NCBI GenBank assembly: GCA_951406725.2 | Contig: OX597833.1 | Coordinates: forward strand, 27,962,001 to 28,026,000 | From: Octopus vulgaris | Taxonomy: Eukaryota | Reading direction: 5' to 3' | Length of the DNA: 64,000 bases | In this document: piece after piece, positions 2,485 through 44,343 of the stretch | How positions within the stretch are numbered: position 1 is the first letter of the stretch | Layout of the letters: the number at the start of each line of letters is the position of its first letter | Position numbers and translations under genes: made by a program | The notes under the pieces: generated by a model | What the model saw: only the letters and a program-made list of their open reading frames with translations | What the model was told of the DNA's origin: nothing | The model's database searches: none

Positions 2485-5400
2485 ACACTCCACCCGCATC
2501 AAACGAGGAGGACTGCTTCACTGACCTGGGCCGCTGACCATGCCAGTGGACGCCTGCTCCTGGTCTGTTCCAAGCAGTTGATCTTTTTGCGGGCGCCTGT
2601 CAGCACGCTGTGGAGCGGTTCAACTTCTCCAGGCGTCCCCGTCGTCTCAACATCTCCCCAACCGAACTCTCGGCTCTTCGTTCCCTCCGACGGTGCACTG
2701 ACATTGTTATTAAACCGGTCGACAAGGGTGGAGCAGTGGTGGTATGGCGCGCGGACCTCTACAAGGCCGAAGCTCTCCGCCAACTCCATGACACCTCCTT
2801 CTACTGCCCTCCGCCCTCTGACACCACGCCCAGCTACCAACAGGTTTCCTCTACCATCCATGAACTCATCTCGTCCTCCCGTCTCCCCCACACCGCATCC
2901 AACCTCATTGTCCGACCCCCCACACACCCACCATTTACTTCCTCCCCAAAATCCACAAACACAACAACCCTGGCCGCCCCATCGTCTCCGCCTGTAACTG
3001 CCCCACCGAACTTATCTCCAAATATCTCAACCGTGTCCTTGCGCCCCTAGTGGCTTCTCTTTCTTCTCACATCCATGACACCAACCATGCTCTTCGTCTA
3101 TTCAACCCTTTCTCCTTCCCTCCTGGCTCCTCCAAACTTCTCTTTACACTGGACATCCAGAGTCTCTACACTGTGATCCCTCACCACGAGGGGCTGCGTG
3201 CACTGAAACACTTCCTGGACCTCCGACCCAATCCCCGATCCGACACTTCCACACTCGTTCGTCTGGCCGAACTTGTCCTCTCACTCAACTACTTCTCGTT
3301 CGCGGGCGAGTTCTACCAGCAAGTCTCGGGAGTGGCCACGGGAACGAGGATGGGCCCCAACAATGCGAACCTGTTCGTTGGCTATGTTGAGGCCCAAAAT
3401 ATTCTCCAGTTTCACTGGTCCCAGTCCCGAACTATATGGCCGTTATATTGACGACTGTATCGGTGCCACCTCACTCTCCCGCGAACATCTAGACTCCTTC
3501 CTCTCTTTCGTCAAATCTTTCCATCCTGCCCTCCACTTCTGCACTATCTCTGACACCTCTGTCTCCTTTCTTGACATTTCGGTCAGCATTCATCACTCCA
3601 CTCTTACCACCTCCATCAACTACAAACACACAGACTCACACTCATACCTCAACTTCTCCTCTCCCACCCCAAACACACCAAGCTTTCCATCCCCTATACC
3701 CAATTCCTCCGTCTACGCAGGCTCTGTAGTGATGACCATGACTTTGAGACTTTCATCCTACGTGGACATCCCCTCACCACTATCCACCCCGCCCTTGCCA
3801 GAGCACTTCCGTGGACCGTGCATCTGCTCTCTCCCCCGAACCTGCCCTGCAGTCTCCCGCCTCCCTTTTCCCCTCACCTACCACCCCATCACCCTGCCTC
3901 TCCAATGCACCATTCTCCGAGCTTTCCAGCATCTCCAGTCCGACCTGTCCACTTCACACATCTTCCCTAACCGACCCCTCTCCTCCTTCAAACGAGCCCA
4001 CAACCTACGAGACCTCTTGGTCCACAGCTTCTTCCCCAACCCTACCTCCCAACCTGGTTCCTTCCCCTGCTCCCGCCCACGCTGCCGCACTTGCCCTTGC
4101 CCCTCCAACACAGACCTCCTCATCGGCACCCATCATCGACCCTATCGCATCACCGACTCCTTTACCTGCACCTCCAGCAATATCATCTATTGCATCTCCT
4201 ACTCTCTCTGCCATTCCCTGTACATCGAACAAACGGGACGCCGCTTGGCTGACCGGTTCCCGGAACACCTCCGAGACATCTGCCTCGGTAATGACACCCC
4301 GGTCTCACGCAATTTCTGCTTCACCGGTCACTCCTTGCAACACCTATCTGTGTTCGGATTGTCCTTACACAGAGGCCATCCGGACTCCCGTTTGCCCTGT
4401 GAACAAGAATTAATCTTCTCTTTTCGCTCTTTTACGCCATTTGTGATCACTCTCCTACATCTCTTCACCCCTCCTCTCTTTCCCTCTTCTCTCTTTCTCT
4501 CTTTCACTCTTCTCTCTTTTTCTCTGCTCCCTCACTCTCCTTCTCTCCTCTCCCCCCTTCCCTCCTACTTCTTCCCACCCAACTCTCCTCTCTTGACCCG
4601 ACTCCTACTTCTCTTCACTCTTACTTCTCTTCATCCCTACTCTCTTTCCCTCTTCTCTCTTTCTCTCTTCTCTCTTTCTCTCTTCTCTCCAACTCTCTTA
4701 CTCTCTTTCTCTCCTCTCGTTCCCTCTTCTCTCTTACTCTCTTTCTCTCTTACTCTTTTCCTCTCTTCTCTCTTTTTCTCTTCTCTCTTACTCTCTTTCT
4801 CTCCTCTCTCCTCCTCTCTCTCCTTACTCTCTCTTTCTCTCTTCTCTCCTCATCTCTCTCCTCACATACCCACCTTCTCCTCCCCCATAAGCCCACCCAC
4901 CCTTACACATTCCTTCTCCACCTTCCGATCCCCCCATCCTATCCCACACACCCTCTCCCACATACCTCACCTCTACCCCCACCCTCTGCCTACCCACAAA
5001 CCCCAACTCTACTCCAACCCTCAGTCGAACCCACACCCCACCCGTGCTTTCCCCATTCTCGCCACCCCCACCTCCCAACAACATCACACCACTACACCAT
5101 ACAACACTACACATCACATCACAACACACCACCCACACACCCATCCCCACATTTTCACACCTACACATACATACACACACACGTCCAGACCACCAGCCCT
5201 CTTTCACACGCACATACATACTCTCTTATACACGCACGCACCTTCGTGTTGGGGATCATCTTTACTTTGTTATCTCCCCTACTTTCCCTCTCGTGTGTGA
5301 CCCTTCTGTCCGAGTCAGTGCCGTGATAGATCGTTAGCCACTACACACATTTTTTCTCTCCTTGTTTCTCTCCTTGTTTTTTCTGTGTCCCTTTTTGTAG

Positions 5401-5520
5401 AAGAGCGTAGGCTCGAAACATAAAATACTTTTTCTATTCATGAGCGTTATACTAATACATCTGTTTGCTTTGTACACCACCTGTCTTCGTCTTTTGTTTT
5501 TTCGTAAACTCTCTCTCTAT
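2485..5520 (+). mobile_element. Penelope-like element: frameshifted RT + GIY-YIG endonuclease, polypyrimidine 3' UTR and pseudo-LTR
   Basis: IVIKPVDKGGAVVVW, TLDIQSLYTVIPH, QVSGVATGTRMGPNNANLFVG, RYIDDC, CSRPRCRTC, FTCTSSNIIYCI..C..LYIEQTGRRLADRFPEH. Confidence 0.92.
5391..5425 (+). ncRNA. Degenerate minimal hammerhead motif in PLE pseudo-LTR
   Basis: TAGAAGAGCGTAGGCTCGAAACATA: stem II and GAAAC present, CUGA box mutated; similar to the motif at 41408. Confidence 0.4.
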
Positions 5521-19077: not shown

Positions 19078-19867
19078 TGGTGTGAGAAGGTTAAATAGAG
19101 GAAATAGTTGAGTTCGAATTATTATAGAAAAGGAGGAGATAGGGAATACAGATGGAAATAGGAGAATGAAAGTAGAAGTAAGATATATAAAGATATTGTA
19201 TATATGTATATACATATATACATGCTCTAATATCTATACAGCCTTGGGTTTTTTTATCTCATTATACAAAAAAATTTTAATATTTTAAATAATAATATTA
19301 TGACCATTCCTAAATTTTCAAATTCTAATTCTTTGTAACTAAATAAGAATGAATATACCATACTAGCTTTTATTCAACATGCACAGATTACTAAGAAACT
19401 TCATTGCTTATTTAGAATTAAATTCTCTTTTTTTTTTCTTTCTGATAATCTCCTATATTAAATAGAAAAAATTTTATGTCTCTAAGGAAACTACTCAGTT
19501 CATCTTGATTACCTCACTTCCATTTTTAATATATCATTGACTCCGGATATTTTTACCTAAGTGATTAGTTTTTCTCCGCGGGTAGTAAACATTATGTCTA
19601 ACAGATTCTTTAATTTAATTCATTAATAACAAATCACCATCTACTAAATCTAAGAAAATGACTCATCTTGATTACTCCTCTTCCACTGTTTCTAATATAT
19701 ATCATTGACCCCTAATATATTCACTTAATTAATAAGACTTTTGTCCACAGTTATTGAATATTATGCCTACTCATAATAAATGATAGTTTTTTTCTCCAAA
19801 ATTAATAAATATTAGATTTATAATTCTCTTTTAATCTAACTTATTAAAATAATCATCTACCACTAGC

Positions 19868-20110
19868 TGCTTTCTTCCAAAGAATCTAATGCTCTTAGCC
19901 TAGTTTATCCTTGGGACTGGCCAGATTGAAGCAATCTCAAGTATAATCAGTCGAAATTGCGAAGATAATTTGGTACTTGACTGAGGAAAGAAAACTTCGA
20001 ATGACCCTTCCCCGTTTTCTTTGTATCGTCTATCTGGATGTTTTGTTGTCCCATTTTGTATCACCTAACTGTCCGGATGTTTTGCGTTCTTGTCCCATTT
20101 TGTATTTTAC
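19868..20110 (+). mobile_element. Diverged solo copy of the PLE pseudo-LTR seen at 28750 and 29523
   Basis: Colinear similarity: GCTTTCTTCCA..ATCTAATGC..CCTTGG..AGCAATCTCAAG..AATCAG.CGAAATTGC.AAGAT..CTTGACTGA.GA..CTTCGAATG. Confidence 0.8.
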
Positions 20111-28749: not shown

Positions 28750-28757
<8 letters not shown>

Positions 28758-29917
28758 TAAACAGTAAAAATAATTACAGACATGAACAAGAACATGAAAC
28801 ACCACAGAGACGACACAAGAACCACAGGACGGGACATTCGAAGCCCTCAGTCATCAGTCAAGAACCAGATCATCTTAGCAATTTCGGCTGATTAATCTTG
28901 AGATTGCTCCGATATGGCCAGCCAGCCAAGGGAAATCTAAGCCAAGCGCATTAGATCCCCTGGAAGAAAGCTTCGAATGTATACAACACGAGGACGGAAA
29001 ACGAACGAAGTACACGAACAAAAATACAGAATACGTGACACCAATAAGAATGCAAAAACGTAAAAACAATAACGGTAATAATAAAAAATAAACAACAAAA
29101 CAAAACCAGGACGTAGGACAAGGGTCTTTCGACAGGACGAGTTAAGTATGGGGCTGGCTTGTGAAGTTGTGCCTAATGGCCGCGGGGAGACGAACAAATA
29201 CGTGTTGCTTCTGCGACTGCTGAAACGAAAAGAGCGCTCAACAGCGGCTAGCGGTCACGTGAGAACAAAAGACAGGAGAAAGGGACAGATGAAAAGAGAG
29301 AGAAGGTGGACGAGGGAGGAGAAGAAAGAGACAGATCGAGGGGGCTGGAGGTGAGAGAGATAGAGAAACGTAGAAGGGGGGGAAGACGGATGGAGAGGGA
29401 AAGAAAGGAAGGGGAATAAGGGAGGAGAGAGAGAGAGAAAGAGACAGATTAAGAGTCGTATCAATGTTAGAGAAAAAATATACTTATCGTATAAGGACAA
29501 TTGTGGATACGTAGCCGCCGATTATATAGGTAAACAGTAAAAATAATTACAGACATGGACAAGAACATGAAACACCACAGAGACGACACAAGAACCACAG
29601 GACGGGACATTCGAAGCCCTCAGTCATCAGTCAAGAACCAGATCATCTTAGCAATTTCGGCTGATTAATCTTGAGATTGCTCCGATATGGCCAGCCAGCC
29701 AAGGGAAATCTAAGCCAAGCGCATTAGATCCCCTGGAAGAAAGCTTCGAATGTATACAACACGAGGACGGAAAACGAACGAAGTACACGAACAAAAATAC
29801 AGAATACGTGACACCAATAAGAATGCAAAAACGTAAAAACAATAACGGTAATAATAAAAAATAAACAACAAAACAAAACCAGGACGTAGGACAAGGGTCT
29901 TTCGACAGGACGAGTTA
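28750..29917 (-). mobile_element. PLE partial tandem: two near-identical 395-bp pseudo-LTRs (28750-29144, 29523-29917) around a pyrimidine-rich 3' end
   Basis: Direct repeats with one difference seen (CATGAAC vs CATGGAC); no TG..CA ends; the internal part reads KYIFSLTL (like PLE ORF ends K.IF.L.TL) followed by a CT tract; flanked by (TA)n. Confidence 0.75.
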
Positions 29918-30146
29918 TATATATATATAGCATAATTAAATCTCAGAATGAGATTGAAACAGTAATCGCTCGATAATGTAAAGTATAGAAGCCATCTTAT
30001 CATGGCTAATCACATTGGGGAGGGGGTGTTACTGTAGCTTTATAGCCCCAAGAGATCTTCGTCTCTAGCTGGCTTTAGACACAATATCTGTGTCCTTGGA
30101 GTATTTTCAAAGAGAGGCCATCCCTTCCTCGCAAGCCTGAGTGATA

Positions 30147-30189
30147 CGCTCGAACTAGTTTCGGGATTGTTGTCCCTCGTCAACGGGCG
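30147..30189 (-). ncRNA. Minimal type I hammerhead motif (U3 variant)
   Basis: cgcccg-TTGACGA-GGGAcaacaaTCCC-GAAA-CTAG-TT-cgagcg. Confidence 0.65.
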
Positions 30190-30288
30190 GTAACCACCAG
30201 GTTTTTCGACATCAGTGGCAGACGCCATTAGAAAAACTTATATATATTTGCAAAGGAGCCTTCACTTTCGTCGCTACCTGGTGGTTAC

Positions 30289-30331
30289 TGCCCGTTGACG
30301 AGGGACAACAATCCCGAAACTAGTTCGAGCG
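30289..30331 (+). ncRNA. Minimal type I hammerhead motif (U3 variant)
   Basis: tgcccg-TTGACGA-GGGAcaacaaTCCC-GAAA-CTAG-TT-cgagcg. Confidence 0.65.
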
Positions 30332-30470
30332 TATCACTCAGGCTTGCGAGGAAGGGTTGGCCTCCCTTTGCAAATACTCCAAGGACACAGATATTGTGTC
30401 TAAAGCCAGCTAGAGATAAGATCTCTTGGGGCTATAAAGCTACGGTAACACCCCCTCCCCAATCTGGTTA

Positions 30471-41344: not shown

Positions 41345-41407
41345 CATATGTATGATCTTATGCAAAGTATTAATGAGACGCTCAGAGAAGGAAAGAAAGA
41401 GTGGTTG

Positions 41408-41441
41408 GTTTATGTTTCGAACATAGCTCTTCTTCAGAAAC
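41408..41441 (-). ncRNA. Minimal hammerhead motif in PLE pseudo-LTR
   Basis: gttt-CTGAAGA-aGAGCtatGTTC-GAAA-CATA-aac. Confidence 0.5.
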
Positions 41442-41525
41442 AGTTGACATAGGAAAGTCCAAAAGAAAAGGAAGGAAAAAATCGACAATGGTCCACGTGT
41501 AGTTACATTTTGGAATACATGTGTG

Positions 41526-41571
<46 letters not shown>

Positions 41572-41899
41572 AAGAGAAAAGATGAAAAAACACAGATTTG
41601 TTTTACAGGGTTTAAGAGTATATTGGAGTCACGATAATAAAGATATTATACAATTTTGTACAAAATAAGGTTTTGTTCTTTCAACATAATTCAAATAAGG
41701 ACCAGTTTGGCATTGCTTCTCAAGCTAAGAGTTCAAAAATATATACTGCTGGGAGTAAAAAATACATTGCCAGGGGGATACTTGTTCGCTCATTTATTTT
41801 GCAGTTAAGGGGGGGTAAATCTGTAATCATTATTGTTTTTTTTTTTTGTGTTCTCTATTTTATTCTGGCTTATATCTTACTTTACATGGAGTAAGTCCC

Positions 41900-44220
41900 T
41901 TATTTTTAATATAGGTTCATATTTAATTCTGGGTTATATTTTTAGATAAATCAGACTTTATTCAGTCTTACTTGGGTTGAGGTCCAGAAGGCAAATTGAT
42001 AAAATGAGAAAACTACGAATTGTGGTTGTAATCGTTCAGCACATTCGACTGAGGTATATTTGGCGATATTGTGGGGAGGAAATTCATTGTCTATGGACCG
42101 TACGTCTCTTTCGGATCGAATTTCCTGTCGAACTAATATAGTTTTGTTGGCAGCCCGAGCATCTGATTATGGAAACGAGGTTCTGGGAGGCGTAAGTGAA
42201 TTGAGATTTGATTTTGAATACTTACCCTTGTCTGAAATGGAATTTCGATCCTTCCAACTTTGCGTCCGTTGTTCTAGAGGATAGTTTGGCATTGGTGAGA
42301 ATATTCTTCAATGTCTCAGGTTGTTTGCTGCTCTTAATGATTTTATGGTTGCGTAGAATTTCCTTAAGTTTGCAGTCCTTATGAAGTATTGGAAGATTTT
42401 GAACGATGATATTGAAAGCGTCTTTGTTTCTGGAGTTGTATGTGGAGATATAAGGTAGTGCTTTGAGAGTAGATGTGTTGTTGAGTTTGACTTTTTTTAG
42501 TGTTTTAATATCAATCGATTTTGAACGCTTAATTATTTCATTTATAAGTTGAGTTGTGTAGTGCCTGTCCTGGAGTAATTTTTTAAGCTTTTGCAATCTT
42601 AGTTCTCTAGTATTTTTTTCGGTTACTATGGTGCAAATCTTCCTTGCAAAGTTGAAGAGGATATTTGTTTTGATATGTCTCAGGCGACATGAACTAAATG
42701 ATAGACATTGTTTAGCGTCTGTGGTCTTGTAAAAAAATGTTTCTATTTTTCTGTTTTAATCAGTAAGTCTAGGGGTGGGAGTTCCTCGTGGTCGTGTTCC
42801 ATTGTGAATTGTATGTTGGTGTTAATGTTATTGAGAAGTTTTTTTATGTTTTCATTCCAGAGGATGAAGTAGTCGTCCAAAAATCTTTTCCAATTTTCTT
42901 TTATGGTATTGGGAAAGAGGGTTTCTAAATTTTGAAAAAGACACGTAATATATTGTTATTTCTAAATAGCCCATTGTTAGATTGGCTATGCTTGGTGCTG
43001 CCCTGGTTCCCATTGCAATTCCAGATTTTTGGCGATAAACAGTGGTGTCAAACATGAAATGGTTGTTTTGGAGGATGAATTTAATTGATTCAGTTATGAA
43101 GTCTTGTTGATCCGTTGTGGTATTTCTGGATATTTGTCCAGCCAGAAACGGATTGCTTCTATTCCATAACTATGAGGTATGTTGGTGTATAAATTAATCA
43201 CATTGAATGATACTATGATTGTTTCCTCCTCGACCCTTTCTGGAAGGTGATTTAACATATCCAAGTTATCTCTAATATGACTCTTGATATATTTTAGAAA
43301 TGGTTTCAGGAGAATGTCCATGAAGCAACTTAATCGATGTGTTTCACAGGATGGTCCAGCTACAATGAGCCGTAATTTTAGGACTCCTGGTGCTGGTGTA
43401 TGTATGTATGTATGTATGTATGTATGTATGTATGTATGCCTTTGGAGAATTTTTTGATGGCTTCGTTTATAGTTTGGCTTTTGTGAATTTTAGGTAGACC
43501 ATAGAATAGGCTGGGTTTACATCTAAAGTTTGTCAAAGAGTCTATTTCTTTTTTGTTAGGTATTTTCCGTGGGTTTGGATTGTTGAAAAGAGGTTTTCCG
43601 TTATTTTTTGGCGGGTGTAATTATTGACTTTTTCGTAGTGTTCATCATTATTAAGTATGGATACTACTAAATTTTTGTACTAAAATGTGTCCATTACCAC
43701 TATTGCACTTTCTTTGTCCGCTTCATTGATTGTTATTTATTCATTGTTTTGTAGTTTAGTTAGTTCTTTCCGTTGGGTGGTGCCGAAATTTGAAGTAATT
43801 TTTTTGTTTGTGCGGGGAGTGGTAGGAGAAATTTTGTGTGTTGATATGAAGCATGTGGGTAAGTGATGTTGTCTTGGATTGTTTTGCGTATATTGGTATC
43901 TGGGAGTTCTTTGGCTGGTATTTTGTGTGTCCCAAAATGTGTTCCGTTTTCTTTGTTCTGGGGCTGGAAAAAGTTGGTTGTTGCTGTGTTGGTATGACCT
44001 GTCCGTGTAGAAGTAGGGATTTGGGTTGGACGGATAGTGATGCTGAACTCTTGGATTGTTTTGTGTTTGGGCATCGGTGTCTTCATCGTTCTCGGAAAGG
44101 GGGCAAAGTTCCTGAATGCGTTGTGGCCTCGTCCGAAACCTTTCGCTTGTGGAGTGGGCCAGTAGTTCTGGGATATGAGGTGGAACCAGAATGTGGCTGA
44201 TGATTTCTGTTCATAGTGCA
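41900..44220 (-). mobile_element. Degraded Penelope-like element (RT, thumb, eroded endonuclease)
   Basis: VSFNVINLYTNIPH, YRQKSGIAMGTRAAPSIANLTMGYLE, RFLDDYFILW, LPYISTYN, SKQPETLKNILT. Confidence 0.88.
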
Positions 44221-44284
44221 TGTACGATAATACGTGTGAAAGCGTTACATTTATATTCCCTGTACCTCACGTCATGGACGCTTA

Positions 44285-44343
<59 letters not shown>

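Follow-up and report, generated by a model that had tools for sequence, protein, structure and literature searches.

The window analysed here is a stretch of 64,000 nucleotides (nt) of Octopus vulgaris DNA, from contig OX597833.1 of assembly GCA_951406725.2 (positions 27,962,001 to 28,026,000, forward strand). On its minus strand lies a repeat insertion without an open reading frame (ORF). The insertion is built from a retrozyme-like tandem unit of 773 nt and a partial second unit, which stops at the fixed 3' end of the family. Each carries the same domain, and the two copies are identical, stand 773 nt apart in a partial tandem, and are listed in Table 1. An earlier note on this DNA had described the domain as a double-pseudoknot RNA in a Penelope pseudo-LTR (pLTR; LTR, long terminal repeat), with an identical second copy and a diverged one near 19870-20003. 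Comparison bears out the identity, and the diverged copy is real, at 19867-20005 of the plus strand. All the listed helices were located on the minus strand where the note had placed them. The term pseudo-LTR is loose for an ORF-less tandem unit, but the Penelope-like context does hold, by way of the Naiad elements discussed below.

The domain holds all the parts of a hammerhead ribozyme core. The invariant loops of the earlier note are CUGAnGA, GAAA and the AUC site, and the core is therefore that of a hammerhead and not of an unknown ribozyme. The two pseudoknots are hammerhead stems I and II. From 5' to 3', the domain consists of the P0 5' strand, the P1 hairpin, GGCUG, GCCAUAUC, GGA, GCAAU-C, UCAAGA, a 5-nt linker, CAGCC, GAA-AUUGC, UAA-GA-U, GAUCUGGU, UCUUGA, CUGAUGA and the P0 3' strand. 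Stem III is GCAAU/AUUGC with the AUC site, stem I is UCAAGA/UCUUGA beside CUGAUGA, and stem II is GGCUG/CAGCC beside GAAA. The AGCAAT/ATTGCT helix described earlier is present, but is better read as a 5-bp stem III together with a kink turn (k-turn). With all core nucleotides and stems I to III in place, the statement that the element lacks a hammerhead had to be dropped. A new ribozyme class, for which the note had proposed the RNA as a candidate, was rejected because every hammerhead core feature is present.

The core is permuted non-circularly. It has neither the circular C-G-S strand order of hammerhead types I, II and III nor a match to them in Rfam. The Rfam comparison suggested in the note gave no gathering-level match in the window, and at E<=10 only (TA)n noise. 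Sequence and covariation show that the order runs from the stem II 5' strand through the I/II interaction helix, S, G and the I/II helix again to the stem I strand with CUGAnGA. Judged from sequence, it is very probable that the motif is a complete hammerhead core with three covarying stems in this non-circular permutation, likely active as a self-cleaving ribozyme that processes the transcripts of an ORF-less Penelope-like (Naiad-type) tandem repeat. The minus strand of the downstream copy folds at -54.6 kcal/mol (z -3.9, with 0 of 200 shuffles as good) and the plus strand at -44.3 kcal/mol (z -3.3).

Five ORF-less subfamilies, A to E, were gathered by iterative searches of the octopus genome itself (best 40 places each, of which 30 were analysed). 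A sixth, N, is a Naiad tail. The genome holds 5,178 exact pattern matches for A/C-type copies, and 323 matches for N, whose short search pattern was taken from the tail of the published Octopus Naiad; controls gave 0 matches in both cases. A topology descriptor parsed 150 distinct copies in the examined loci and 0 in 1.97 Mb of reversed sequence. Copies of A and D are 98-100% alike. MAFFT misaligned N, which is therefore compared by core-anchored parsing.

GAAA, CUGA.GA and the GA of the bulged k-turn strand are invariant in 36 of 36 aligned rows, while N7 and the bulge vary. CUGAnGA stands directly 3' of the stem I strand in the six subfamilies, and stems II and III are joined by GAAA, with A15.1 paired to U16.1. 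G10.1-C11.1 and U16.1-A15.1 are present in all six. The NUH site triplet between stems III and I is AUC in A, B, C and E, AUA in D and GUA in N. Stem I exists as UCAAGA/UCUUGA, UCAAGU/ACUUGA, UCAGA/UCUGA and CUGCCC/GGGCAG. Stem II is GGCUG/CAGCC, GGGCA/UGCCC (E) or GACAC/GUGUC (the Naiad tail, N), and stem III is GCAAU/AUUGC, GCAAAU/AUUUGC, ACCAU/AUGGU or AUGGU/ACCAU.

Of the 126 family-level cells across the six subfamilies, 122 keep their pair, and 26 additional Watson-Crick pair types occur. An equally good score is reached by 2 of 720 family permutations overall and, when stem I or stem II is taken by itself, by 24 of 720. Within 27 rows of A-E, 94.1% of cells are paired and 75 cells show double changes; 0 of 500 shuffles score as high and slid controls reach 20-47%. 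The pair-type count on these 27 rows did not exceed that of shuffles. The subfamily pairings thus bear out the claim of a conserved, covarying double-pseudoknot RNA on the sense strand of the element. Three double substitutions had been named in its support. Two of them, at the end pair of stem I and in the inner helix, are found family-wide in B, but the third, GACTG/CAGTC, is weak: it occurs in only 2 of 30 copies of B, and a further 2 carry GACTG/CAGCC without compensation. For this stem the support comes from E and from the Naiad tail, whose stem II sequences are given above.

Eckert et al. (2023, PMC10085705) work on the assumption that no more than 1-2 nt ever lie between CUGAnGA and its stem II strand. 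The octopus motif has the S-G-C order and the I/II helix of their type SGC, but not its intact block C, in which A9 and the stem II strand are at most 1-2 nt apart. Here the P0 5' strand, and not a stem II strand, pairs with the bases that follow A9. The partner of stem II sits upstream. A downstream strand at offsets 0-2 from A9 forms on average 0-2.4 of the 5 pairs in A-E; in N the mean is at most 3.8. The A9/G10.1 step is taken up by P0 and P1, whose linkers measure 0-2 nt, and together with the core the two helices are predicted to form a four-way junction. In Penelope hammerheads, a single bulged base is usual at this step (PMC4209133), and a literature search that included the available text of PMC3088659 returned no report of helices inserted there.

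It is also conceivable, if very unlikely, that this is an ordinary type-SGC hammerhead. In that case the active stem II would be formed with a segment shortly after CUGAnGA (in A, C and D the GGCU that lies 5 nt downstream), and pairing with the upstream GGCUG would be an inactive or regulatory alternative. The downstream strand does form a mean of about 4 of the 5 pairs at offset 5 in A, C and D, and of 4.5 (mostly G.U) at offset 4 in N, but it has a maximum of 2.1 in B and 2.8 in E, compared with 4.65-5.0 of 5 for the upstream partner in all six subfamilies. Although block C is intact in the known SGC ribozymes (PMC10085705), here the upstream strand changes along with its partner in E and N, and the I/II helix runs on from it. 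The downstream segment has its covarying partner in the P0 5' strand.

Between stem III and the I/II helix lies a 2x5 loop. At the sequence level it is a standard k-turn, with a C helix, a 3-nt bulge followed by G.A and A.G as in the published definition (PMC5061560), and an NC helix. Subfamilies A-D have U.G at 3b.3n and E has C.C, and both fit the ion-folding rule that 3n is G or 3b is C (PMC4382518). Position G2n is A in the subfamily-B copy of the window. The k-turn would bend the I/II helix back along stems III and II, so that the ends of stems I and II meet. That a k-turn sequence stands at exactly the place where a single-unit fold requires a sharp bend argues against a core that is active only as a dimer, with strands swapped between adjacent tandem units and a strained single-unit topology that never forms. 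Metazoan Penelope hammerheads have been proposed to act as dimers (PMC4209133), and the units are found in tandem. Stems I to III are however all 5-6 bp inside one unit, and monomeric SGC and CSG forms cleave (PMC10085705), which makes the dimer extremely improbable.

Table 1 Features of the window. Sub-parts of the ribozyme domain are given for the downstream copy.
Feature	Position	Strand	Remarks
ORF-less repeat insertion	28756..29916	-	773-nt unit 29916-29144 and partial second unit; (TA)n flanks
Permuted hammerhead domain, downstream copy	28834..28980	-	
Permuted hammerhead domain, upstream copy	29607..29753	-	sub-part coordinates +773; predicted cut between 29675/29674
5'-truncated subfamily-B copy	19867..20110	+	predicted cut 19936|19937; core 19981-19987
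P0 5' strand	28966..28980	-	closing helix; arm of predicted four-way junction at A9/G10.1
P1 hairpin	28926..28963	-	second inserted arm, directly 5' of stem II 10.x strand
Stem II 5' strand 10.1-10.5 (GGCUG)	28919..28923	-	displaced upstream
I/II interaction helix, 5' strand	28911..28918	-	pairs with 28864-28871; helix 'I' of PMC10085705
k-turn non-bulged strand G3n G2n A1n	28908..28910	-	from six-subfamily sequence and the definition in PMC5061560
Stem III 16.x strand and C17	28902..28907	-	predicted cut 28902/28901 (AUC|U), from core analogy and 5'-end pile-up
Stem I 1.x strand	28896..28901	-	pairs with 28858-28863
Stem II 11.x strand (CAGCC)	28886..28890	-	after 5-nt linker
G12 A13 A14 and stem III 15.x strand	28878..28885	-	GAAA invariant in 36/36 aligned copies
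k-turn 3-nt bulge and G1b A2b U3b	28872..28877	-	bulge variable, GA invariant
I/II interaction helix, 3' strand	28864..28871	-	
Stem I 2.x strand	28858..28863	-	
CUGAUGA catalytic core (C3-A9)	28851..28857	-	N7 alone varies among subfamilies
P0 3' strand	28834..28848	-	after A9, where stem II would stand

Copies would start at the predicted cut site because reverse transcriptase (RT) runs off a cleaved 5' end, and the 5' ends in the genome match this prediction. The copies were chosen by their sequence 3' of U4 only, and the first 100 of 3,671 on one contig (C1) were used. Between G12 and the predicted site there are 25 ends (0.0167 per nt), compared with 11 in the 78 nt that precede the site (0.0024 per nt) and 10 lying 3' of G12 (0.0037 per nt, P 2e-5). 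The density falls about sevenfold 5' of the predicted site. Three copies start exactly at U1.1, a position uncertain by one base as the first U is shared with the (TA)n target, and none start at -1 to -3. With four internal deletions removed, the comparison is 23 against 9 (P 2e-8). A further 34 copies give 16 against 7 (P 4e-5); two of these copies start at U1.1, and positions -1 to -20 hold no ends. A 33-event count of all ends 5' of the site is inflated by alignment-end effects and is not used. The pile-up of 5' ends may be read as an indirect sign of cleavage in vivo.

The same ends also bear on a reading in which the fold is retained as a binding or positioning signal for a Penelope-like RT, or for a k-turn-binding protein, with little or no cleavage and with 5' ends that come from RT stalling in the knot. 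More than half of the sampled copies do read through the site. Catalytic mutants of the Anolis Poseidon element had no effect on insertion and RNA-seq showed no ends at the site (PMC11167929), and Penelope minimal hammerheads are poor cleavers in vitro (PMC4209133). Yet all catalytic nucleotides and the NUH triplet are kept while the stems of the subfamilies changed completely. In two samples the 5' ends break off sharply at the predicted bond, and the loop has no excess of TA/AT microhomology (0.16 versus 0.13 per nt). This reading is unlikely.

For an active ribozyme, the following cycle can be proposed. The ribozyme would cut read-through RNA at AUC|U, with one cut in each 773-nt unit. An RT/endonuclease of Penelope-like type, acting in trans, would nick the (TA)n target and begin cDNA synthesis some 145 nt downstream from the cut; internal initiation has been shown for a Poseidon element (PMC11167929). 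On a cleaved template the cDNA would run off the 5' end and leave short copies, and on an uncut or circular RNA it would continue and give partial tandems. Hammerheads of types SGC and CSG do cleave in vitro (PMC10085705). The octopus element is covered in four RNA contig sets, which are assembled contigs that cannot show ends or circles.

In A-E the 3' end of the copies is fixed and the 5' end varies. The copies occur in partial tandems of about 700-780 nt and with inverted 5' companions, and their flanks are (TA)n. Among 60 loci, both orientations occur in 6 and a tandem in 3. No in-line Penelope-type ORF was found with A-E, nor the RT/GIY-YIG ORF that a pLTR flanks. In 65 copies with up to 3.5 kb of upstream sequence, matches to proteins of Penelope-like elements (PLEs) turn up in 4 (two on the opposite strand, two internal RT pieces), none of them from Naiad. 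No helper element for A-E was found in the loci examined.

The A-E copies are tied to Penelope-like elements because the same architecture sits in the tails of Naiads. The N motif lies 0.7-1.5 kb downstream of a Naiad-like RT, on the same strand, in 13 of 30 loci (the query's own locus included). Peptides of one locus (L280) match the published Naiad_Ovul protein by eye, and the Octopus Naiad consensi are near-identical to N. None of the 30 Naiad-like RT loci matched a profile built from A-E copies, and blastn of A-E against the Naiad loci gave no nucleotide match. The Naiads in this genome are remnants, and the longest frame among 133 matches has 300 aa. A second, older Naiad tail lineage (loci L223, L237, L247 and L250) has a different P1 hairpin and 3' flank and the same core.

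Published Naiad consensi were parsed by eye on passages of a 54-entry file (PMC8557442, File S5). The split form is clear in 9 of 54 entries (three from Acropora, three others from the cnidarian part, one ostracod and two Octopus) and partly parsed in 2 (Beroe and Euprymna), while 6 entries of the nematode part have the intact type-CSG form. The remainder were unparsed or gave no match, where motifs split by line breaks could be missed. In tails from spiders and other ostracods (parts 16-19), CUGAnGA follows a C-run and neither the split nor the CSG layout fits; these are possibly further arrangements. Bivalve tails in the same file gave no CUGAnGA match by eye. A metagenome pattern scan gave one match, without CUGAnGA downstream, which is taken as chance.

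Taken together, we think it fairly probable that a seventh natural hammerhead wiring exists, split by a four-way junction and with a k-turn as its hinge. It would be the ancestral ribozyme of many Naiads (in cephalopods, cnidarians and an ostracod, with intact CSG in nematodes), active in vivo, and driving a cephalopod retrozyme family with over 5,000 copies, in which the ends of the insertions bear the trace of cleavage.

Several points weigh against these conclusions. The copies given to the topology descriptor were chosen by similarity, and the parser required the GA/GA of the k-turn. The six subfamilies share ancestry, and the covariation figures are not probabilities. A-D have the same stem II, so its support amounts to three independent sequence states, with the 24 of 720 permutations noted above. 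The folding z-scores of B, D, E and N are not significant (-1.3 to +0.6), as expected because the fold is dominated by pseudoknots. In constrained folds of B, C and D a small 3' hairpin competes with the inner P0, and in A, C and D most of stem II (about 4 of 5 pairs) could form with the downstream GGCU. N has U.U at 3b.3n, outside the k-turn folding rule. Block C is interrupted, against the assumption of Eckert et al., and activity is not assured by analogy alone. The pile-up of 5' ends could also stem from RT stalling in the knotted core, and for the Poseidon element hammerhead cleavage was dispensable for insertion in vitro (PMC11167929). There is no Naiad frame of more than 300 aa among 133 matches, and the helper of the young A and D was not found.

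The window and related loci also contain other features. A small GUC-GAAA-GAC hairpin lies about 150 nt upstream of the ribozyme (29897-29906 and 29124-29133, minus strand) and is retained in A and B despite diverged flanks. The remainder of the unit has intron-like signals, namely a GTAAGT donor (B), a long pyrimidine tract and YAG, at 29523-29200 (minus strand) and at about 1020-1310 of locus L033. They resemble the intron in the 5' untranslated region of PLEs. Directly upstream of the insertion, at 30062-30416, is a 141-nt inverted repeat (97%) of another element. A decayed Penelope/Poseidon-like element (RT, GIY-YIG-like domain, CT-rich tail) occupies 2538-5480 of the plus strand, and close to its 3' end, near 5397-5419, stands a small hammerhead-like variant in the usual order. 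A decayed Neptune-like element at about 41400-44300 (minus strand) has a CUGAAGA...GAAAC motif near 41410-41440.

The RT of one locus (L006) was considered as Naiad and rejected. It belongs to a Hydra-like family with a C-terminal endonuclease, in whose 30 loci the motif occurs only with a nested A or D copy. This Penelope-like family is young, with dozens of open frames near 900 aa and no permuted motif of its own (L182-L210), and is a candidate helper.

The ribozyme class and the S-G-C order are already known. Among the mostly open-access literature searched, no paper was found that reports the split-block form or the k-turn, or places such a ribozyme in Naiads or animal chromosomes; 'type-SGC' with 'hammerhead' gave the 2023 paper only. 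If the interpretation holds, non-circular hammerheads are abundant in animal chromosomes instead of being rarities, and these permutations move from environmental sequence to animal genomes, in thousands of copies. The three-block assumption, which capped the permutations at six, would be broken. Eckert et al. leave open how the I/II helix joins stem III directly (PMC10085705), and a k-turn is suggested as a concrete solution. The pile-up of 5' ends would provide a genomic readout on Penelope-type ribozyme cutting during retrotransposition. Craig et al. (2021, PMC8557442) describe Naiads without canonical hammerheads, some marked 'HHR_half_core', and do not resolve the half cores. The split form offers an answer to that puzzle for part of the clade.

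The closest known relatives are the type-SGC and type-CSG hammerheads (PMC10085705). They share the cyclic S-G-C order, the short linker between stems I and II, the predicted site, the additional helix that connects stems I and II at their other ends, and two core pseudoknots. The octopus motif differs in that it opens inside block C, at A9/G10.1, with two helices filling the break, and in that neither link between the I/II helix and stem III is open, the two together making up the k-turn sequence. The SGC and CSG ribozymes known so far were found in metatranscriptomes, in soil DNA and in one bacterium, type CSG in two unique soil sequences, and the available supplement text of the paper has 0 matches for Octopus, Mollusca, Metazoa, Eukaryota, kink or k-turn.

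The non-LTR retrozymes (bioRxiv 10.64898/2026.07.22.740005) are likewise ORF-less tandem units with one hammerhead each. They and the Penelope minimal hammerheads (PMC4209133) have been proposed as non-autonomous Penelope-like derivatives, as is also proposed here. Their hammerheads however are type I, and were found with type I descriptors that are blind to the permuted form. Standard k-turns (PMC5061560, PMC4382518) share the bulge and the G.A/A.G pairs, whereas here the turn would be an architectural hinge within a hammerhead. By eye, the non-cephalopod Naiad forms have connectors other than a k-turn.

Naiad PLEs (PMC8557442) share with A-E the targeting of (TA)n, 5' truncation, partial tandems and inverted 5' copies, while subfamilies A-E differ in being ORF-less. 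The Octopus Naiad tails marked or shown in that paper have exactly the split architecture described here.
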